Shown here one piece after another: positions 1,153 to 63,863 of a stretch of DNA of 63,935 nucleotides. Position numbers and translations under genes: made by a program. The notes beneath the pieces were generated by a model. It did no database searches. It was not told the origin of the DNA and saw only the letters and a program-made list of their open reading frames with translations. Origin of the DNA: a virus (taxonomy: Duplodnaviria; Caudoviricetes); the IMG/VR virus record IMGVR_UViG_3300036793_000016, positions 1 through 63,935 of that record, one strand, 5' to 3'. Each line of letters opens with the position of its first letter. The first letter of the stretch is position 1.

Positions 1153-1226
1153 CGCGCAGTGGAGCAGCTCGGTAGCTCGGGGGACTCATAATCCTCAGGT
1201 CGTGGGTTCAAATCCCACCTGCGCAA
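1153..1226 (+). tRNA. tRNA-fMet (CAT), initiator type
   Basis: Cloverleaf; loop CTCATAA; C1xA72 mismatch, A11-U24; T-loop TTCAAAT; no encoded CCA. Confidence 0.92.
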
Positions 1227-1347
1227 CGAGTAGGAGGCGGGTAGAGACCCGCTGGCCAAACTCCGCGAGGCCCCTTATACGGCCATCGACTCCAATCGGT
1301 GGAACAACCAGTCGGGGGGTTTTTGTCTGGTGCAGGGCGATTGATGG

Positions 1348-1418
1348 TGGTCGGTAGTTCAACGGCAGGACGGCGCCTTCTGAGGGCGTAGGTGCGGGTT
1401 CGATTCCCGCTCGACAAA
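1348..1418 (+). tRNA. Atypical tRNA, anticodon CTG (Gln)
   Basis: D-stem GTTC/GGAC, anticodon stem GCGCC/GGCGT with loop TTCTGAG, T-arm GCGGG-TTCGATT-CCCGC; acceptor stem has G2xA71 mismatch. Confidence 0.7.
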
Positions 1419-1440
1419 TGCCATCAACCCTGTGCTGCAA

Positions 1441-1513
1441 TGGCTTGTAGCTCAGTCGGCAGAGCGGCGGATTGTTAATCCGCAAGTCCCTGGTTCGAGT
1501 CCAGGCGGGCCAG
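1441..1513 (+). tRNA. tRNA-Asn (GTT)
   Basis: Canonical cloverleaf, loop TTGTTAA, U1-A72, G73. Confidence 0.95.
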
Positions 1514-1515
1514 CA

Positions 1516-1614
1516 CCGTGGGTGATGGGTTCAGTTCATGGCTGATCGCCTAGTTGTCCAGCGCACGGCTTCGGCACGGCGTCCTGGAACGGAGTTTCAA
1601 TAGCTCGCCCACGG
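1516..1614 (+). ncRNA. Candidate cloverleaf-like ncRNA between tRNA-Asn and tRNA-Ala
   Basis: 10-bp closing stem CCGTGGGTGA/TCGCCCACGG with three internal hairpins, one capped by cUUCGg. Confidence 0.5.
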
Positions 1615-1618
1615 GTAA

Positions 1619-1691
1619 GGGGACGTAGCTCATCAGGTAGAGCGCCGCTTTTGCAAGGCGGATGTGGCAGGTTCGAGTCCTGTCGTCTCCA
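1619..1691 (+). tRNA. tRNA-Ala (TGC)
   Basis: Cloverleaf, loop TTTGCAA, G3.U70 alanine identity pair, A73. Confidence 0.95.
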
Positions 1692-1699
1692 CGCAGCAT

Positions 1700-1771
1700 T
1701 GGGAGCTGGGGTAATCGGCAGCCCGCGAGGTTCTGGCCCTCGTCGTCCAGGTTCGAGTCCTGGGTTCCCAG
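1700..1771 (+). tRNA. tRNA-Gln (CTG)
   Basis: Cloverleaf, loop TTCTGGC, U1-A72, G2-C71, G3-C70, G73. Confidence 0.93.
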
Positions 1772-1797
1772 CCTCTCATTCAACCCGAGCTTGACCG

Positions 1798-1826
1798 TTG
1801 CCTCGGCGTCCCCACCGGGCTATGTT
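1798..1826 (+). promoter_or_regulatory. Possible SigA-type promoter for the vWA gene
   Basis: TTGCCT-N17-TATGTT. Confidence 0.4.
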
Positions 1827-1864
1827 CGGATTTCCTCCAACCACGGAATAGGAATGGGACAGCT

Positions 1865-2533
1865 ATGACCAGTCAGCAGACGGAACCATCGGTCAACGAC
1901 CTCAGCCCGATGTTTAAGACGGGCGTCGAAAAGGAGCCGATCTTCCTGATCGACACCAGCGGCTCGATGAGCTGGCCCAACACCGAGGGCGGCGCAGCGC
2001 GCTACGTGATCCTGGGTGAGGCGATCGGCAACCTCGTCGGCGCGCTCGAAGGTCTCGACAGCCAGGCCGCGCACGAGAAGGAAGCAGGCGAGGACGCTGG
2101 CGGCGTCATGACCGTGCTGTTCTCGGACAAGACTGAGGTGCTCGGCGACCTCAGCTCGGCGAACGTGAAGCAGAAGTGGGACTCGATCGCCTGGGGCGGC
2201 GGCACCATCATCCAGCCCGGCTGGGACGCCGTGATCGAGAACTACATGGAGGAGTTCGGCGACACCCCGAAGCAGGACCGTCCGCACCTGCTCGCGGTCA
2301 TCTTCACCGACGGCGAGGCCAACGACACCGACGCCTTCGCCTCGACGATCGCCAAGTCGCAGGGTGGCACCTACGCGCTCATCGTGATCATGGGCTACGG
2401 GCCCGAGCACGACCGGGCGCTCCAGGTCTACCAGGACATCACCAAGCAGAACGATCACGTCCGCGTGGTCACGTTCGGCAACGAGACCGACCCGAAGGTG
2501 ATTGCAGACGGCCTGCTGTCAATGGTCGGCTAG
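1865..2533 (+). CDS. von Willebrand factor A (vWA) domain protein
   Basis: MIDAS motif FLIDTSGSM, GGT, VIFTDGEAN. Confidence 0.85.
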   Translation: MTSQQTEPSVNDLSPMFKTGVEKEPIFLIDTSGSMSWPNTEGGAARYVILGEAIGNLVGALEGLDSQAAHEKEAGEDAGGVMTVLFSDKTEVLGDLSSANVKQKWDSIAWGGGTIIQPGWDAVIENYMEEFGDTPKQDRPHLLAVIFTDGEANDTDAFASTIAKSQGGTYALIVIMGYGPEHDRALQVYQDITKQNDHVRVVTFGNETDPKVIADGLLSMVG

Positions 2534-2549
2534 GTAGCAATCCCGCCCC

Positions 2550-2584
2550 GGTGCCCCGCTTCATCCAGACTGGAGCGGGGCACC
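2550..2584 (+). terminator. Hairpin terminator
   Basis: GGTGCCCCGCTTCA/TGGAGCGGGGCACC after the vWA stop. Confidence 0.65.
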
Positions 2585-2603
2585 GCATGTCTGGGGAACC
2601 ATC

Positions 2604-3011
2604 GTGATCGCAGAGATTGTGGACGGCCTGCTCGGTGCCGGTGTCGGTGCCGTAGTGGGTCGTCTATCCAGGCGCAAGACGCCATCCGTGCCAACTGATC
2701 CGCCGCCCATCTGCGGCTGCGGTGACAACTACGCCCTGCACGATCCGACCACGCGGATGTGCTTCGGCACCAGGCGGCAGAGCGTCTACAACAAGCCGAC
2801 CGCGAGCTACTACGACGAGACGGTGCAGTGCCCGTGCCGCCAGTACGTGGGGCCGATCCCAGTCGACAGCTTCACCTCAATGCCGGTCTCATGGGGCACC
2901 CCGGTGGACACATCGAAACAGACGCCCGTCCAAAAGCCAGTTCAGCGTCCAGCACCGACCGTCTCGAAGCGCAAGACGCAGAAGGGCGACCCCGACTACG
3001 GTCCACCCTGA
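2604..3011 (+). CDS. Membrane-anchored Cys/His-rich hypothetical protein
   Basis: N-terminal hydrophobic helix; CGCGDNYALHD...C...CPCRQYVGP. Confidence 0.65.
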   Translation: MIAEIVDGLLGAGVGAVVGRLSRRKTPSVPTDPPPICGCGDNYALHDPTTRMCFGTRRQSVYNKPTASYYDETVQCPCRQYVGPIPVDSFTSMPVSWGTPVDTSKQTPVQKPVQRPAPTVSKRKTQKGDPDYGPP

Positions 3012-3084
3012 GCAATCTGAACATCCGTCCTCTGTTCATCCTGAGGCTCTGGATTCGTTCATATTCGTCAGCGACTCTCGCAGT

Positions 3085-3456
3085 GTGTCTGAGGGGCGTC
3101 ATCGTCGCGTAGCCGGTCAACATCGGCGCGATGTCGGGCAGCATCGCTACGTGGCACCCAAGCTGCCATCAGTCGCACCGCACCCCAGCCATGTGCCCCG
3201 GCGCGCATTGTTCACTCTTGCTGGGATCGCTGGACTCGCAGCGGCCAGTACCGTGTCGCCGGGATCGGCAGGGGCGTCGACCCACGAGGTTGAGCGTCGT
3301 TTCAAACACTGGCATGACCACCCAGATCGACATCCACCGAAACCCGTCGCGCCACTCGCCATTCCAGCCGACCTACCTGCCGACGCCACAATGAAGCAGA
3401 TCGTCGCCGCCCTCAATAGTCTGTCGGCCTACCTCCGGAGCGAGGGCGCGTCGTAA
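3085..3456 (+). CDS. Hypothetical protein with twin-arginine-like signal (start uncertain)
   Basis: 3' part of ORF 2722..3456; in-frame GTG at 3085; PRRALFTLAGIAGLAAAS...AGA. Confidence 0.45.
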   Translation: MSEGRHRRVAGQHRRDVGQHRYVAPKLPSVAPHPSHVPRRALFTLAGIAGLAAASTVSPGSAGASTHEVERRFKHWHDHPDRHPPKPVAPLAIPADLPADATMKQIVAALNSLSAYLRSEGAS

Positions 3457-3510
3457 AACCGACGAACATCCATTCCCTCTCTCGCGTCGTCCAGGCGATA
3501 TGGTTTCAAC

Positions 3511-4128
3511 ATGGGTCTGTTGAACGATCTCGGGCTGAAATACGACGCCGATAAGAGTTCCCGCTTCCACAACTACCTCGACTTCTACGAGCAGCACCTG
3601 CCCGACCGAAACTTCGCGGGCAGGCTCCTGGAGATCGGGATCATGGATGGCGTCAGCATGAAGATGTGGGCCGAGTTCTACCCGAAGGCCGAGATCGTCG
3701 GCATCGACGTGGTGGACAAGGAGCATCTCTACAACGACGACTGGCAGCTACCCAGGAGCATCAAACTGCTCACGCTCGATGGCACCAAGGCCGAGGACGT
3801 GCGACCGCTCGGCATGTTCGACATCATCATCGACGACGGCTCGCACTTCACCGCCGACCAGCAGGCCAGCTTCGAGCTGCTCTACTACGACCAGCTCAAC
3901 GAGGGCGGCATCTACATCGTCGAGGACATCTGGACCAGCCGTATGACGCAGTACGTCAACTCGGAGCTGGACATGTTCGATTGGTTGGAGAAGAAGGGCA
4001 TCACAGCGACCGTCTTCAAGCACGAGCACAACGGCATCGGCAGCATCGTGTTCCCGGAGTACCCCGAGTACAAAGACCTCGGCAGCGAGACGGCGCTGAT
4101 CCGAGCTGGCCAGAAAGGGATGGCATGA
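3511..4128 (+). CDS. Class I SAM-dependent methyltransferase (sugar O-methyltransferase-like)
   Basis: DK..FHNYLDFY, LLEIGI, IVGID, FDIIIDDGSH, GGIYIVED. Confidence 0.85.
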   Translation: MGLLNDLGLKYDADKSSRFHNYLDFYEQHLPDRNFAGRLLEIGIMDGVSMKMWAEFYPKAEIVGIDVVDKEHLYNDDWQLPRSIKLLTLDGTKAEDVRPLGMFDIIIDDGSHFTADQQASFELLYYDQLNEGGIYIVEDIWTSRMTQYVNSELDMFDWLEKKGITATVFKHEHNGIGSIVFPEYPEYKDLGSETALIRAGQKGMA

Positions 4129-4775
4129 CGATCTTTGTGGCGAATCAGAGCAAGCGCGTGTCGGACGCCGACGTGCGTGCCATGACTGCGGCCTGCGACA
4201 GTCAGGTCTTCTATCACGCAGCCCCGCTGTACGGGTACAAGCCGCGTCGCGTGCAGTTCACTGCCGATCCGAAGTCGATCACGAGCGACGCGCTGATCAT
4301 CGTGGCCGACACTCCGGACGAAGCCAACGCCCTCGGTTGGCACTCGGAGCAGGCCAGTGGCCAGTCCTACGGCTTCGTTTTCGCTGCGCCCGTACTCGAC
4401 AACGGCGGCGACGCGCTCTACAACACCAACGTCTCGGTCTCCTCGGTGCTCAGTCACGAGGTGCTGGAGACTTGCCTGAATCCAGGTGTGAACGTCAGCG
4501 CCGACGATGGGCAAGGCTGGCTCTGGGCTTACGAGGTGTGTGATCCGGTCGAGGGTGACAGCTACCCGATCTACTCCAAGATCATGGTCAGCAACTTCGT
4601 CCTTCCGGCGTTCTTCGACCAGGCAGGCAAGGGTCGCGTCGACTTCATGGGCACCGCGCCGGGGCCGTTCAGGCTCGCTCGGCATGGATATGCCGCTCGT
4701 CAGGCGAGCACCGGGAAGCAGGCGGAAATCTTCGGCGACCAGTACATCCCTTGGTACAACGGGGCCAAGGGCTAA
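4125..4775 (+). CDS. Hypothetical protein, possible zincin-like metallopeptidase
   Basis: ATGA overlap with upstream stop; ALGWH, VLSHEVLE, YEVCDPVE motifs. Confidence 0.6.
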   Translation: MTIFVANQSKRVSDADVRAMTAACDSQVFYHAAPLYGYKPRRVQFTADPKSITSDALIIVADTPDEANALGWHSEQASGQSYGFVFAAPVLDNGGDALYNTNVSVSSVLSHEVLETCLNPGVNVSADDGQGWLWAYEVCDPVEGDSYPIYSKIMVSNFVLPAFFDQAGKGRVDFMGTAPGPFRLARHGYAARQASTGKQAEIFGDQYIPWYNGAKG

Positions 4776-4804
4776 TCGGTTGACTCCTCACCTATGGTGA
4801 ACAC

Positions 4805-4843
4805 ATGACCTTCCGCTCCTGGCGACCGCGACCTCTCATCTGA
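4805..4843 (+). CDS. Putative leaderless leader peptide MTFRSWRPRPLI
   Basis: TATGGT(4793-4798)-N6-ATG; stop overlaps hairpin 4842-4869; directly upstream of tRNA-Trp and tRNA-Pro. Confidence 0.45.
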   Translation: MTFRSWRPRPLI

Positions 4844-4873
4844 GTGCAGTCGCTCGCGGCGCTGCGCTCGTAA

Positions 4874-4946
4874 TGGGGCGTAGCCAAGCGGCCAAGGCAG
4901 CGGCTTCCAAACCCGTCATTCGTCGGTTCGAGTCCGACCGCCCCAG
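4874..4946 (+). tRNA. tRNA-Trp (CCA) with a Gln-like body
   Basis: Cloverleaf, loop TTCCAAA, C31xC39 mismatch, U1-A72, G73. Confidence 0.85.
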
Positions 4947-4967
4947 CAGAATCGCGCGCAGTGCCAC

Positions 4968-5041
4968 CGGGATGTGGCGCAACTTGGTAGCGCAGCGGCT
5001 TTGGGAGCCGATGGCTGGGGGTTCAAATCCCTCCATCCCGA
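4968..5041 (+). tRNA. tRNA-Pro (TGG)
   Basis: Cloverleaf CGGGATG/CATCCCG, loop TTTGGGA, A73. Confidence 0.93.
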
Positions 5042-5104
5042 CACGATGATGAACTCATAGGGACGTGCGTTCCTATTCACCGATGCAAGGGCTATGGTGA
5101 CTCT

Positions 5105-5671
5105 GTGGCCGACCCGATCACGCGGGGCGAGTACGAATCCCTCTTGCTCACCCCAGGCGAGAAGTACATCCTGACCCAACTACGCAAGGAGATTCGATCG
5201 CTCATGTCCGCACTCACTGACCAGGTAGATGCAGCACTCGCGCTGCTCGCCACCGAGACCAGTGGCCTCCAGGGTGTCATCGACGCGCAGAACGCTGCCG
5301 CCGCTGTCCTCCAGGCAGCCCTCACCGCATCGCAGGCCAACGAGGTCGCCGACGAGGCCGAACTCCAGAAGGCTCTCGACGCTCTGAACCAGGCCAACGC
5401 CGCGCTGGCCGGTCTCCAGTCGAGCACCCCGACCACGCCGGTGGACCCGACGACTCCAGTCGACCCCACCACGCCGACCACTCCGGTCGACCCCACGACT
5501 CCCGTGGACCCGACGACCCCGACCGATCCGACCACTCCGGACCCGACCACTCCGGACCCGACCACCCCGGTCGACCCGACCACGCCGGACTTCCCGGCAA
5601 CCCCGGACCCAACGACTCCGGACCCGACCACGCCGGACCCGACCACTCCGGACGCGCCGACCGTCGTCTAG
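5105..5671 (+). CDS. Coiled-coil protein with C-terminal Pro/Thr/Asp repeats
   Basis: Ala/Leu/Gln-rich heptads then [11 protein letters not shown] repeats; alternative ATG at 5204. Confidence 0.75.
5429..5652 (+). repeat. Coding tandem repeats (15-18 bp units)
   Basis: Repeated CCGACCACTCCGGAC / CCGACCACGCCGGTGGAC units. Confidence 0.85.
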
Positions 5672-5685
5672 TCCTCGCGGCTGCA

Positions 5686-5715: not shown

Positions 5716-5752
5716 CTTGCATTTATATGGACGCGCGTCCGAACATAGAGGT

Positions 5753-7444
5753 ATGGCCGTCCTTGAAGCGTTGAGCGATGAAGAGAAGTACCTCGTCGCC
5801 ATCCTCCAGGACAGCTCAGGTGTCGACATCGCGGAGTTCCTCTGGCGCGACCCGGACCAGAAGGACAACCTGTTCCGCTGCTACGACTTCCAGATTCCCT
5901 GGTATCGCAACGACGCCAAGCAGCAGATCGACCAGTGCGCTCGCGCCATCGGAAAATCGGTGGGCATCCAAATGCGCGCCTTCGCCTTCCCGTTCTGCAA
6001 CCCCGGCAACGACATGCTCATCACGGCGCCAGAGATGATCCACCTCGACCCGGTGACCAAGAACATCGAGGACCGGCTCATGAGCACCCGTCTCTCCAGG
6101 GAGATGCTCAAGTCGGGCAACCAGTCGACCGGCATCACGCACCGCCCGTTCGAGGCGAAGTTCCGCAACGACGCCAAGATCATTGGCCGCATCCCGCAGA
6201 AGGACGGCAAGGGCGTCAAGGGTATGCACCCTCGGATGCTGGAGATGGACGAGGCGCAGGACTACCCCGCCGCTGGCTGGGTGGAACTGGTCGAGACCCT
6301 GCGCTTCGGCGACGAGACCTCACGTTGGCGGGCCCACGGCGTCTCCCGAGGCGTGCGCGACCACTACTACAAGCTCAGCCAGTCTGACGACTGGTACGTG
6401 CACCGCATCACCGCCATGCACCGGCCCGACTGGACCGACCAGGAGCGTAAGAGCAAGGCCGAGCTGTACGGCTCCAAGGAGCACCCGGACTACCGGCGCA
6501 ACATCCTGGGCCTGCACGGCGACGCGATGTCGAGCCTGTTCGTGCTGCACCGCCTCATGGCCTGCGTCGACTCGAACGAGAACTCGCCCTACAACACCCA
6601 GACCTACCAGCACATCCGCATCAACGACGAGTGGCTGCGCGACTCCGGGATGCCCATCGAGGCGCTTATCGACCTCCCAGGCGCCCACAAGTCGTTCAAG
6701 CGCGTCTGGATTGGGATGGACGTCGGTATGACCAACCACCCGTCCGAGATTCTGGTCTTCGGTGCCGAGAACAAGCCGGGCAAGAAGATCGGCGAGAAGG
6801 ACTCGGGCGAGCGGCTGCGGTGCCTGACCCGCATCCACCTGGAGCGCATCTCGGCGATGGACCAGCTCGCGGTCATGAACTTCCTGGCCGAGTTCTACGA
6901 GCCGCTGGCCTTCGGCATGGACCGCACCGGCCTGGGCCTGCCGATCTTCCAGACCGCGCAGTCGGGCGAGGGCAGCAACCACTGGCTCCAGAAGTCGATC
7001 CGTGGCTACAACTTCTCGGAGAAGATCACCGTCGGCTTCGAGCCTGCTCCCGAGGACGAGATGGAGTGGGTGGCGCCCGAGGACCGGGCCATCATGGGCA
7101 ACGTCCTGGAGTACAGCTCGGACCAGCTCCGGCTCCTCGTCGACCAGGGCGGGCTCGTGCTGCCGTGGGACATCGACATGCTCCGCGAGTTCCAGGGCCA
7201 GGCGTACTACATCAGCAAGTCAGCGACGAACCCGTATGGCAAGAAGGAGTTCAACAAGGGCAAGTTCCACGCTCTTGACGCCGCTCGGATGGCTGGCCTC
7301 GCCTACAGCCAGGAAGCGGTGGAGAAGATGCTCAAGCTCATGCCCGATCAGAGCAGCGTCATGCTCGCCTGGGCAGCCGAGGACGACTATGCCGGTGCCG
7401 TCAGTGGCGGCGGGTACGCCGACCCTATGTTCAGCGACTGGTGA
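5753..7444 (+). CDS. terL: Terminase large subunit
   Basis: Walker A-like CARAIGKS, Walker B LEMDEAQD, nuclease motifs IGMDVG, MDRTGLG, HALDAARM; first gene of the virion module; GAGG RBS before ATG 5753. Confidence 0.88.
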   Translation: MAVLEALSDEEKYLVAILQDSSGVDIAEFLWRDPDQKDNLFRCYDFQIPWYRNDAKQQIDQCARAIGKSVGIQMRAFAFPFCNPGNDMLITAPEMIHLDPVTKNIEDRLMSTRLSREMLKSGNQSTGITHRPFEAKFRNDAKIIGRIPQKDGKGVKGMHPRMLEMDEAQDYPAAGWVELVETLRFGDETSRWRAHGVSRGVRDHYYKLSQSDDWYVHRITAMHRPDWTDQERKSKAELYGSKEHPDYRRNILGLHGDAMSSLFVLHRLMACVDSNENSPYNTQTYQHIRINDEWLRDSGMPIEALIDLPGAHKSFKRVWIGMDVGMTNHPSEILVFGAENKPGKKIGEKDSGERLRCLTRIHLERISAMDQLAVMNFLAEFYEPLAFGMDRTGLGLPIFQTAQSGEGSNHWLQKSIRGYNFSEKITVGFEPAPEDEMEWVAPEDRAIMGNVLEYSSDQLRLLVDQGGLVLPWDIDMLREFQGQAYYISKSATNPYGKKEFNKGKFHALDAARMAGLAYSQEAVEKMLKLMPDQSSVMLAWAAEDDYAGAVSGGGYADPMFSDW

Positions 7445-61808: not shown

Positions 61809-63863
61809 ATGCTGAGCTTCAAGCTCACTGACTCATTCGTGAACAGCTACAAGGATCGCAAGGTCGACTGGGGGTATCAGGACGCAGGCGGGAACAGTCT
61901 GGGTGAGATCACCTTCCTGCGTACCTACTCCCGAATCAAAGAGGACGGCACCAAGGAGCGGTGGTACGAGGTCTGCCGCCGAGTAGTCGAGTGGATGTTC
62001 CACGAGCAGAAGCACCACTCCAAGATCAACCGAATCCCGTGGAACGACCACAAGGCGCAGCGTTCGGCACAGGATGCCTTCGAGCGGATGTTCACCTTCA
62101 AGTGGACGCCGCCCGGTCGTGGCCTGTGGGTGGCCGGTACGCCTCTGGTCAACGACCAGCGCAACTCAGCGGCGCTCCAGAACTGCGGCTTCGTCAGCAC
62201 CGCCGACATGTCCAAGATCGACCCGGCTGCCCCGTTCAAGTGGCTGATGGAGGCGTCCATGCTGGGCGTCGGCGTGGGCTTCGACGACAAGGGTGCCGAC
62301 AAGGACTTCTCGATCTACGAGCCAGGTTCTAACGTCCGTCAGTTTGTCATCCCGGACACCCGCGAGGGCTGGGTCGACTCGATGGGGATGCTCCTGGAGA
62401 GCTACCTCATGCCCGACAAGCAGACCCTGGACTTCGACTACTCGCTGGTGCGTCCAGCCGGTGCGCCGATCAAGACCTTCGGTGGCACGGCGGCGGGCCC
62501 GGAGCCGCTGATGAAGCTGCACCGGATGATCCGCAACAAGTTCGACGGCAGGGCTGGCTCTCCTCTCACCAGGACAGACATCGCCGACATCGGAAATCTG
62601 ATAGGTGTCTGTGTCGTCAGCGGCAACGTGCGGCGCAGTGCCGAGCTGCTGATCGGTCGCATCGACGACAAGGAGTTCGTGCAGCTCAAGAACCCGGAGT
62701 TCTTCCCGGAGCGCAACTTCTGGACCAGCGACGACAACGACACCCGTGACCGTGGCTGGGGCTGGATGAGCAACAACTCCGTCGAGGCCGAGGTGGGCAG
62801 CAACTACGACCACCTAGTCGACGCCATCGCGCTCAACGGCGAGCCGGGCATCGTCTGGATGGACATGTCCCGTCAGTACGGTCGACTGATCGACCCGCCG
62901 ACCAACAAGGACTGGCGCGTGGCCGGGTACAACCCGTGCGCCGAGCAGTCCCTGGAGAGCTACGAGATGTGCACGTTGGTCGAGACCTACCTCAACCGGC
63001 ACGACGATCTGGACGACTTCAAGCGCACCCTCAAGTACGCCTTCATGTACGCCAAGACGGTCACCCTGCTCCCGACCCACTGGGAAAAGACGAACGCGAT
63101 CATGCAGCGCAACCGTCGCATCGGATGCTCCGTCAGCGGCATCGCCAACTTCGCGGACAACAAAGGCATGACCGAGCTGCGAACGTGGCTCAATGAGGGC
63201 TACGAGACCGTGAAGCGGTACGACCAGGTGTACTCGGAGTGGCTCTGCATCCGGGAGTCGATCAAGACCACCACGGTGAAGCCGAGCGGCACGGTCAGCA
63301 TCCTCGCTGGCGAGTCGCCGGGTGTGCACTGGGCGCCCGGTGGTGAATACTTCAACCGCGCCATGCGACTGGCCAAGGACAACGCGCTCGTCCCGCTGAT
63401 CCAGCAGGCGGGCTACGTCATCGAGACCGACGTGATGGACCCGACCAACACGGTGGTCGCGTACTTCCCGATCCACTCGCAGGCCAGGCGTGCAGAGAAG
63501 GCCGTCACGATCTTCGAGAAGGCCAACCTCGCGGTCATCGCGCAGCGGTACTGGTCGGACAACAGCGTCAGCGTGACGCTGAGCTTCGACGCAGCCGAGG
63601 AGGCCAAGCACGTCGGCACGGTTCTGCACATGCACGAGGGCCAGCTCAAGACGGTGAGCTTCTTGCCAATGGGCAACAAGGTCTACCCGCAACAGCCCTA
63701 CACCGAGATCACCCAAAACGAATGGACGGACGCCAGTATGGCGCTGTTCCGCATCGACCTGGAGCCCATGTACCTGGGCGTCACGGCGAGCGAGGCAGTC
63801 GGCGAGGCGTACTGCTCCACTGACAGTTGCGAGGTTAAGGAAGTTGCCCTCAACGCAGGATGA
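61809..63863 (+). CDS. nrdJ: Adenosylcobalamin-dependent (class II) ribonucleotide reductase
   Basis: FLRTYSR, PPGRGLW, NCGF, GNVRRSAE, NPCAEQSLE..EMCTLVE, TTVKPSGTVS, C-terminal CSTDSC. Confidence 0.95.
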   Translation: MLSFKLTDSFVNSYKDRKVDWGYQDAGGNSLGEITFLRTYSRIKEDGTKERWYEVCRRVVEWMFHEQKHHSKINRIPWNDHKAQRSAQDAFERMFTFKWTPPGRGLWVAGTPLVNDQRNSAALQNCGFVSTADMSKIDPAAPFKWLMEASMLGVGVGFDDKGADKDFSIYEPGSNVRQFVIPDTREGWVDSMGMLLESYLMPDKQTLDFDYSLVRPAGAPIKTFGGTAAGPEPLMKLHRMIRNKFDGRAGSPLTRTDIADIGNLIGVCVVSGNVRRSAELLIGRIDDKEFVQLKNPEFFPERNFWTSDDNDTRDRGWGWMSNNSVEAEVGSNYDHLVDAIALNGEPGIVWMDMSRQYGRLIDPPTNKDWRVAGYNPCAEQSLESYEMCTLVETYLNRHDDLDDFKRTLKYAFMYAKTVTLLPTHWEKTNAIMQRNRRIGCSVSGIANFADNKGMTELRTWLNEGYETVKRYDQVYSEWLCIRESIKTTTVKPSGTVSILAGESPGVHWAPGGEYFNRAMRLAKDNALVPLIQQAGYVIETDVMDPTNTVVAYFPIHSQARRAEKAVTIFEKANLAVIAQRYWSDNSVSVTLSFDAAEEAKHVGTVLHMHEGQLKTVSFLPMGNKVYPQQPYTEITQNEWTDASMALFRIDLEPMYLGVTASEAVGEAYCSTDSCEVKEVALNAG

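Follow-up and report, generated by a model that had tools for sequence, protein, structure and literature searches.

What does a phage gain from a 12-codon open reading frame (ORF) and a hairpin set directly in front of two of its tRNA genes? The question is raised by a 63,935-bp stretch of viral DNA (IMG/VR record IMGVR_UViG_3300036793_000016, Caudoviricetes; the whole stretch is called the window below). In it a 69-nt leader precedes tRNA-Trp (anticodon CCA, 4874..4947; 55.2 bits with the Rfam tRNA model), which is followed by tRNA-Pro (UGG, 4968..5042; 64.1 bits), the second gene of a conserved unit. The leader holds a mini-ORF that runs from ATG 4805 to TGA 4843 (4805..4843) and reads MTFRSWRPRPLI up to its stop, and a hairpin at 4842-4869 whose arms, GAGTGCAG (4842-4849) and CTGCGCTC (4862-4869), form eight pairs, one of them G.U; all of these features are on the + strand. 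Only 4 nt (GTAA) separate the hairpin from tRNA-Trp. A sequence-only reading of the locus had taken the arrangement for a candidate leader-peptide attenuator, in which the Trp-Arg-Pro-Arg codons of the mini-ORF can pair with part of the hairpin and exclude it. The mini-ORF, the hairpin and a competing pairing are all present where that reading placed them. The whole is, in our tentative view, best modelled as a ribosome-gated switch on the folding and maturation of tRNA-Trp, that is, as a leader resembling the trp attenuator in which the fold of the tRNA itself would be the output.

The leader occurs a second time, in a 149-kb IMG/VR record (G001) whose terminase large subunit (TerL) is 81% identical in amino acids to that of the window. 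There the leader, tRNA-Trp and tRNA-Pro again form one unit (E = 7e-42), with the tRNA genes confirmed; it lies ∼86 kb from TerL, at another genome position than in the window, and G001 has three tRNAs only (Met, Trp, Pro). Conservation of the upstream ORF had been proposed as a check on the attenuator idea, and in this sole orthologous leader found the ORF persists, unchanged in length and in the place of its stop. It reads MTFRCWRPRPLY and differs from the window ORF by one synonymous and two non-synonymous codon changes, with no indel. The two phages share 35/39 nucleotides in the mini-ORF, 59/69 in the whole leader, 63/74 in tRNA-Trp and 55/75 in tRNA-Pro. Identity in the flanks is about random (27/50 upstream of the ATG and 30/50 downstream of tRNA-Pro), the spacer between the two tRNAs aligns poorly, and the unaligned DNA upstream of the ATG needs an 11-nt gap. 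The only indel of the leader falls in the hairpin loop; the hairpin arms are kept, their sole change being from G.U to G-C. Because the leader is kept where its flanks are random, the selection on it appears to match or exceed that on tRNA-Trp. Since third codon positions are equally conserved, this constraint acts on the nucleotides and not only on the peptide.

Four segments of the unit, all on the + strand, can be paired in two ways. Segment 1 (4821..4837) consists of GGCGACC GCGACC, a tandem 6-mer, followed by CUC; it spans ORF codons 6-11 and can pair with segment 2 (4842..4854), which is the 5' arm of the hairpin, GAGUGCAG, plus UCGCU. The stop codon of the ORF abuts segment 2 in both phages. 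Segment 3 (4861..4869, G-CUGCGCUC) is the 3' arm of the hairpin and is identical in both phages; it can pair with segment 2 or with segment 4 (4876-4884), which is nt 3-11 of tRNA-Trp. The pairings 1:2 and 3:4 are mutually exclusive with 2:3, the putatively sensed codons lie in segment 1, and the stop precedes segment 2.

In the predicted folds the 3' arm of the hairpin, (G)CUGCGCUC, pairs with nt 3-11 of tRNA-Trp in the window and with nt 2-11 in G001, forming the same helix in both phages. The local fold of 15 nt of upstream DNA and the first 14 nt of the tRNA reaches -16.6 kcal/mol in the window and -18.8 kcal/mol in G001. We compared these values with those of other tRNA genes: ARAGORN predicted 139 tRNAs in 89 sources, which yielded 103 distinct contexts after the removal of one close to a sequence end and of 35 duplicates. 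G001 ranks first and the window second, the next context being at -12.1 kcal/mol, and the same two head the 45 contexts with GC-rich upstream DNA. The 3:4 energy of the window is reached by 0.34% of shuffles and 0.29% of random genomic 15-mers, and that of G001 by 0.05% of random genomic 15-mers. The register is the same in both phages, and the change of C6 to U6 in the tRNA retains the pair as G.U. The helix passes beyond the acceptor stem into nt 8-11, so the complementarity is not accounted for by a duplication of the tRNA 3' end. The 5' arm in segment 2 resembles tRNA-Trp nt 3-10, from which it differs by three transitions with the pairing to segment 3 retained (GAGUGCAG against GGGCGUAG in the window, GAGCGCAG against GGGUGUAG in G001). 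At one position the phages have swapped which of the two competing helices has the G-C pair and which the G.U pair.

The minimum free energy structure of the full leader with its tRNA is the trapped state, at -55.0 kcal/mol in the window and -60.1 kcal/mol in G001, against -51.3 and -49.8 kcal/mol for the alternative of hairpin plus cloverleaf. RNAalifold, applied to the leader and the 5' part of the tRNA, returns 1:2 together with 3:4, with 24/24 pairs kept in both sequences. We mimicked the footprint of a ribosome by masking nucleotides in these folds. With the A site at codons 6-9 of the window (UGG CGA CCG CGA) or at codons 7-9 of G001, the hairpin forms next to a complete cloverleaf. With the A site at codon 10, the window folds into a shortened hairpin with the cloverleaf, and G001 into 3:4. 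With the A site on the stop codon, or with no ribosome, both phages fold into 3:4. As the Trp codon of G001 lies just outside the responsive footprint, the sensed codons may be CGA-CCG-CGA as much as UGG.

The hairpin is stable for its length: as a 30-mer it has -19.1 kcal/mol, and 11 of 21302 sampled 30-nt windows are as stable (top 0.05%). A scan of 34-nt pieces finds ∼65 places in the window at -17.5 or lower, many of them in coding DNA, and the intergenic region taken together folds unremarkably (z = -1.46; 14 of 200 shuffles do as well). Judged by its sequence, the hairpin is not a terminator. The sequence-only reading had already cautioned that a U-tract is missing, and this is correct for both phages (GUAAUGGGG and CCAAGGGGG follow the hairpin); a terminator scan called none there, and the 3:4 helix likewise has no T-run after it in either phage. 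Terminator-like hairpins elsewhere in the window reach -25 to -29 kcal/mol; T-rich DNA comes after those at 5683 and 14801, the two with tails that were read.

The competing pairing is real as a predicted structure, but not in the register first drawn for it: 4822-4831 with 4854-4862 has a pair probability of ∼0.04. A better register joins 4821-4826 to 4849-4854 and 4828-4830 to 4845-4847, together with neighbouring pairs, and has -20.9 kcal/mol against -22.8 kcal/mol for the hairpin state. All 15 of its 15 consensus pairs are kept in both phages. In the window it is marginal against chance, since 6.5% of 1000 shuffles reach its energy and 3.1% reach its small gap to the hairpin state, a gap that 2 of 41 natural hairpin controls also reach.

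The RNA may start at 4805, and the start codon of the mini-ORF looks to be used, judging from the context of the start. The -10-like hexamer TATGGT (4793..4798, + strand) stands 6 nt before the ATG. The window has three TATGGT sites on the + strand (3499, 4793 and 5093) and none on the - strand; all three are intergenic and are followed by N6 and then ATG or GTG (3499-3513, 4793-4807 and 5093-5107). Two of them begin real genes, a methyltransferase-like gene at 3511 and a 188-aa gene at 5105, and the third the mini-ORF. The starts at 3511 and 5105 are the first possible ones of their genes, with no Shine-Dalgarno sequence seen ahead of either. For TA[CT]GGT, no gap from 0 to 10 other than this one yields a start codon. 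In a relative the 188-aa gene is preceded by TACGGT-N7-GTG, and the leader of G001 reads TTGATG-N18-TAGCCT-N7-ATG, where the ATG of the mini-ORF overlaps the TGA of an upstream HNH gene as ATGA. The three TATGGT sites thus look like promoters of leaderless transcripts. A -35-like hexamer, TTGACT (4780..4785, + strand), lies in a patch, AATCGGTTGAC-TCCTC, which the alignment also finds in G001; in the window it is probably unused as a -35 element because it ends only 7 nt before TATGGT. Promoters of Corynebacterium glutamicum have TAnnnT with a weak -35 element and a spacer of 3-11 nt (PMC3890552), and in mycobacteria an RTG at the 5' end of an RNA is necessary and sufficient for translation (PMC4633059). 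By analogy, the layout of the motifs in the window fits an actinobacterial type of promoter and leaderless translation.

The mini-ORF contains one Trp, two Pro and two Arg (CGA) codons, which fall on codons 6-10 as Trp, Arg (CGA), Pro, Arg (CGA) and Pro. The codon content of the whole ORF is unremarkable, and only its core of four to five codons is somewhat unusual. Of open stretches of 11 codons 4.7%, and of 769 short ORFs 8.3%, have at least one Trp with at least two Pro codons, and 5-18% of comparable open stretches match the ORF in Trp and Pro content. Trp and Pro within four codons, as in codons 6-9, are found in 2.3% of stretches, and Trp with at least two Pro within five codons in 0.5%. 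CGA makes up 10% of the Arg codons in 30 long ORFs. A tandem run or an enrichment of cognate codons, as attenuators have, is absent from the mini-ORF. The leaders of erm and cat genes use translational attenuation by arrest peptides, with a +x+ macrolide motif. Such leaders share with that of the phage a short ORF with R-x-R and a downstream RNA that is remodelled by the position of the ribosome. For the earlier suggestion of a macrolide arrest motif the ORF offers an R-P-R motif only. Downstream lie the tRNA genes, the 188-aa gene and TerL; unlike arrest-peptide leaders, the phage leader precedes neither a resistance gene nor a ribosome-binding site that could be unmasked, and nothing in it hints at an antibiotic.

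The mechanism we favour would work as follows. Segment 1 would lie within a 12-codon ORF that starts at or beside the 5' end of the RNA, and segments 2 and 3, the hairpin flagged by the sequence-only reading, would act as an 'anti-sequestor'. The 3:4 pairing would destroy the acceptor and D stems of tRNA-Trp and bury the RNase P site, and the trapped precursor would be a poor substrate for RNase P. A ribosome that reads through to the UGA would cover segment 2, leaving segment 3 to capture the 5' strand of the emerging tRNA. When no ribosome is present, segment 1 would hold segment 2, and segment 3 would again capture the tRNA 5' strand. A ribosome stalled at codons 6-9 would cover segment 1 and free segment 2, so that the 2:3 hairpin could form and tRNA-Trp could fold into its cloverleaf and be matured. 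If Trp, Arg or Pro tRNA fit for decoding ran short, more phage tRNA would then be made, and a rising supply would shut production down; depletion or cleavage of host tRNA is a possible trigger. The larger claim, that this is a natural tRNA-maturation switch operated by the ribosome, with which the phage matures a spare tRNA only when the decoding of Trp, Arg or Pro fails, is somewhat more doubtful. What the sequences show is their conservation in two phages and the unusual 3:4 complementarity; where the RNA starts, whether the ORF is translated, how RNase P is affected and what is sensed are inferred from them. That stalling favours the hairpin counts against a terminator, but it is just what the mechanism requires if the hairpin serves to release the tRNA. 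The switch does not depend on 1:2, because a ribosome at the stop codon would still hand segment 3 to the tRNA; without 1:2 the untranslated state would be ON rather than OFF.

Several observations weigh against this mechanism. The consensus promoter scan called no promoter at the leader, 56 related loci show no enrichment of TA[CT]GGT with a start codon after it, and leaderless translation is assumed for the host. The mini-ORF could be incidental: non-synonymous changes in it are as many as synonymous-type ones, and conservation at its third positions equals that at the other two. It has a single Trp codon. The masked fold of G001 with the ribosome at the Trp codon still gives 3:4. The energy of 1:2 is not beyond that of shuffles, 28.5% of which reach it for G001. 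The other 101 tRNA contexts show no pairing of leader and acceptor strand comparable to 3:4, another tRNA unit of the window (tRNA-Met, 1153) has no such ORF, and tRNA-Pro lies downstream, outside the reach of the trapping helix. RNAfold ignores the tertiary structure and the modifications of tRNA, and nearest-neighbour folding underrates the real stability of tRNAs, so that the trapped state may be overrated. The comparison rests on n=2 sequences, with no pair changed on both sides and hence no covariation. In the consensus structure 12/14 variable columns lie outside the pairs (2/14 inside, P = 0.002), a biased test, as the two sequences tested had also supplied the structure; with structures predicted from single sequences, P = 0.025 for the window and 0.23 for G001. 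Finally, the hairpin may be a module that exists independently, because its palindrome recurs in another record with neither ORF nor tRNA.

That palindrome, GAGCGCAG-N11-CTGCGCTC, has a 10-bp stem and stands 13 nt past a gene stop in the record G043 (locus L084, ∼1510-1545, - strand), where no tRNA, mini-ORF or U-tract is found nearby.

The main rival to a ribosome-gated switch, in our estimate not likely but to be taken seriously, is a leader that acts as RNA alone. Its conserved helices would serve the folding of the precursor, the order of processing or stability, for example by guarding the 3' end of the upstream RNA after RNase P cleavage or by slowing maturation, and the ATG and ORF would be incidental. 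Conservation at the level of nucleotides, third codon positions included, would be expected of such a leader; the peptide changes S5C and I12Y are non-conservative, the variable positions lie in loops, and the G043 palindrome, after a gene stop, has neither an ORF nor a tRNA nearby. Set against this, an RTG is found 6-7 nt past a -10-like hexamer in both phages in spite of unaligned promoter DNA, and the first 13 nt of the leader are identical, nt 1-9 being unpaired in the consensus fold. The sole indel falls outside the ORF, the stop codon adjoins segment 2 in both phages, and some factor would have to free the tRNA from a leader that otherwise traps it for good. An improbable further reading places the element in the DNA, as a protein-binding or recombination site of a mobile tRNA cassette with a homing-type HNH endonuclease, made up of the 8-bp inverted repeat, its spacer of 11-12 bp and the tandem GCGACC. 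The cassette does sit at different genome positions in the two phages, and the arms are conserved and do not covary. In G001 an HNH endonuclease gene (locus L064, 1728-2258, - strand; Pfam HNH, 22.3 bits at a cutoff of 21.4) abuts the leader, and HNH genes also adjoin tRNA-Trp in Streptomyces phage Celia and Arthrobacter phage KeAlii (L104 and L105), which suggests mobile tRNA-Trp cassettes. A spacer of 12 against 11 bp would alter the helical phase of such a site, however, and the sole arm change, from G.U to G-C, is relevant only in RNA; nor would such a site account for the complementarity to tRNA nt 3-11, which reaches past the acceptor stem.

We regard it as comparably improbable that the leader has no function, its likeness in the two phages stemming from a fairly recent transfer of the cassette and its pairings from chance in GC-rich sequence. 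There are two sequences only, GC-rich DNA folds readily, 1:2 is not significant and the z-score of the region is unremarkable. Yet the leader is 86-90% identical between phages whose inter-tRNA spacer aligns poorly, whose upstream DNA needs a gap and whose flanks are random, and the 3:4 pairings hold the top two ranks among the 103 contexts. Least probable by far is the classical transcription attenuator of the sequence-only reading. The logic of attenuation stands, with ORF, hairpin and competing pairing present and conserved, but the hairpin as a regulated terminator does not. Neither phage has a U-tract, the scan called no terminator, and the terminator-like hairpins of the window are much stronger, with T-rich DNA in the two tails read. 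The sign is also inverted, because a ribosome that stalls at codons 6-9, on Trp, Arg or Pro, covers the anti-hairpin strand: starvation would favour termination. A plain promoter with an incidental, non-conserved ORF was dropped as a candidate once the G001 unit was found.

Further copies of the leader were sought in phage and metagenome sequences. In blastn searches of INPHARED, the window query matched only inside the tRNA-Pro gene, and the leader plus tRNA-Trp of G001 only at the tRNA body. With tblastn against INPHARED, TerL found two records (best 40% identity), and an ORF initially called upstream of the leader found none. Scanning IMG/VR with the upstream protein gave no relatives, and with TerL 56 loci, none of which has Trp or Pro tRNA genes near TerL. 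Five DNA patterns searched across IMG/VR recovered only G001; a pattern match at L082 is due to chance, in AT-rich coding DNA. The leader pattern (GCGACCGCGACC, then the palindrome arms) was also met in two Armatimonadota metagenome-assembled genomes (L080, 1259-1308, and L081, 2373-2422), where it lies within an apparently shared coding region with no adjacent tRNA and was judged to be chance. A metagenome scan with the 188-aa protein yielded five loci, the best being the G001 contig, and genome contigs scanned with TerL contained no prophage relative. A DNA search of 5 + 50 whole records behind the loci found G001 only. The covariance model R1 found G001 and a hairpin-only match in G043 among 25 records, and on the window its own leader only; the palindrome pattern, on 50 records, found G001, G043 and one site in a coding region of G004. 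By eye, the leaders before tRNA-Trp of phages Celia and KeAlii have no analogue of the element. No Rfam covariance model matched the leader (4776-4873) in a search of 4600-5200 with E up to 10, the four weak sub-threshold matches being on the tRNA genes or just past tRNA-Pro.

The record of the window is linear, ∼43% complete according to CheckV and has a G+C content of 63.7%; its source environment looks like soil, judged from the sequencing run. All long ORFs with high GC content at third codon positions (GC3) are on the + strand. TerL is the ORF at 5717-7444 (PHROG 2), its start likely being ATG 5754 behind AGAGG. A megablast search of INPHARED gave no match and no cultured phage is close; Pfam matches to late and replication genes gave nothing decisive about the host. 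An ORF at 3666-4775 that was called as the gene upstream of the leader is an artefact of frame overlap. GC3 shows two genes there instead, both on the + strand: the methyltransferase-like gene (205 aa, 3511-4128, with weak Pfam matches) and a 216-aa gene of no known family (4125-4775), which overlap as ATGA. Between the tRNA unit and TerL lies the 188-aa gene (5105-5671, + strand), which has no match in Pfam or PHROGs and is conserved in the closest relative. The N-terminal half of its product is conserved, the similarity to the relative starting at residue 7, and the C-terminal half consists of Pro/Thr-rich repeats (PTTPVD and PTTPD units).

Compared with its closest relative (L002, 4206-4341), the window has ∼3.8 kb of extra DNA, roughly 1340-5100, placed after the terminator of tRNA-Met and before the 188-aa gene. 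Besides the Trp-Pro unit and the methyltransferase-like gene, this extra DNA includes four tRNA genes (Gln, Asn, Ala and Gln), the gene of a VWA-domain protein and further ORFs. In the closest relatives, L002 and L003 (81% aa), tRNA-Met is the sole tRNA gene near TerL, and its region is homologous to window 1160-1273. In both the window (1153-1340) and L002 (4086-4240) the tRNA-Met gene is followed by a canonical terminator of hairpin and T-run, so that it looks like a transcription unit of its own; the next four tRNAs of the window lie downstream of this terminator. A good promoter-like site, TTGACC-N17-TACGGT, is seen at 897-925, ∼220 nt upstream of tRNA-Met. At the right end of the window (61809-63863) is a gene resembling class II (B12-dependent) ribonucleotide reductase, with a PD-(D/E)XK nuclease gene and two AAA-domain genes upstream of it. 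Both copies of tRNA-Trp (window 4900-4916 and G001), examined by eye, apparently carry U32 and close the anticodon stem with a C31-C39 mismatch, which may be relevant to resistance against anticodon nucleases.

Among known systems the trp type of attenuator is close in its logic. The leaders of E. coli trpL and of trpE, leuA, ilvB and aroF in C. glutamicum (PMC3890552) share with the phage leader a short ORF with the sensed codons in segment 1, a stop just before segment 2, and the competition of 1:2 and 3:4 with 2:3, in which stalling favours 2:3. In the phage, by contrast, 3:4 has no U-tract and is made with nt 3-11 of the product tRNA, and the step under control would be tRNA folding and RNase P processing rather than termination. 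The Trp codon is single, with no run, and the regulated genes would be phage tRNAs. Because it has neither a U-tract terminator nor a run of cognate codons, we do not file the phage leader as a leader-peptide attenuator. The leaderless cysteine-rich upstream ORFs of mycobacteria, proposed as attenuators by Shell et al. 2015 (PMC4633059), are mini-ORFs that, as the phage mini-ORF would, begin at the 5' end of their RNA and lack a Shine-Dalgarno sequence, and a role in cis is proposed for them. They differ in having protein-coding genes as targets and a strong codon enrichment, whereas the phage leader has a tRNA target and a weak enrichment.

For the output of the proposed switch the nearest likeness is a synthetic RNase P riboswitch (Ender et al. 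2021, PMC7897497), in which a 5' leader structure also decides on maturation by RNase P. That device was designed, responds to a ligand and sequesters the single-stranded leader alone, whereas the phage leader is natural, would be driven by the ribosome and would sequester the acceptor strand. The same paper states that direct riboswitch-based control of access to the cleavage site had not been demonstrated as of 2021. RNase P was still somewhat impeded when 4-5 leader residues of its synthetic constructs were unpaired, so that the hairpin state of the phage, with 4 free nt, may be a sub-optimal substrate. Titles and abstract openings in the full-text literature yielded no natural precedent for control of tRNA maturation by a leader peptide; what came up were reviews on other subjects, as judged by title, and the synthetic switches.

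Phage tRNAs are discussed, in the abstract openings of PMC10264068 and PMC11555353, as countermeasures against host defences that target tRNAs, and the titles and abstract openings searched contained nothing on the regulation of phage tRNA supply. If true, ribosome-gated tRNA maturation would be a new variant of attenuation, extending it beyond termination and the masking of ribosome-binding sites to the maturation of the tRNA itself. It would provide a natural counterpart of the engineered RNase P riboswitch, built so far only in synthetic form (PMC7897497). For the phage, it would constitute a demand-driven feedback loop for a tRNA, which is testable.

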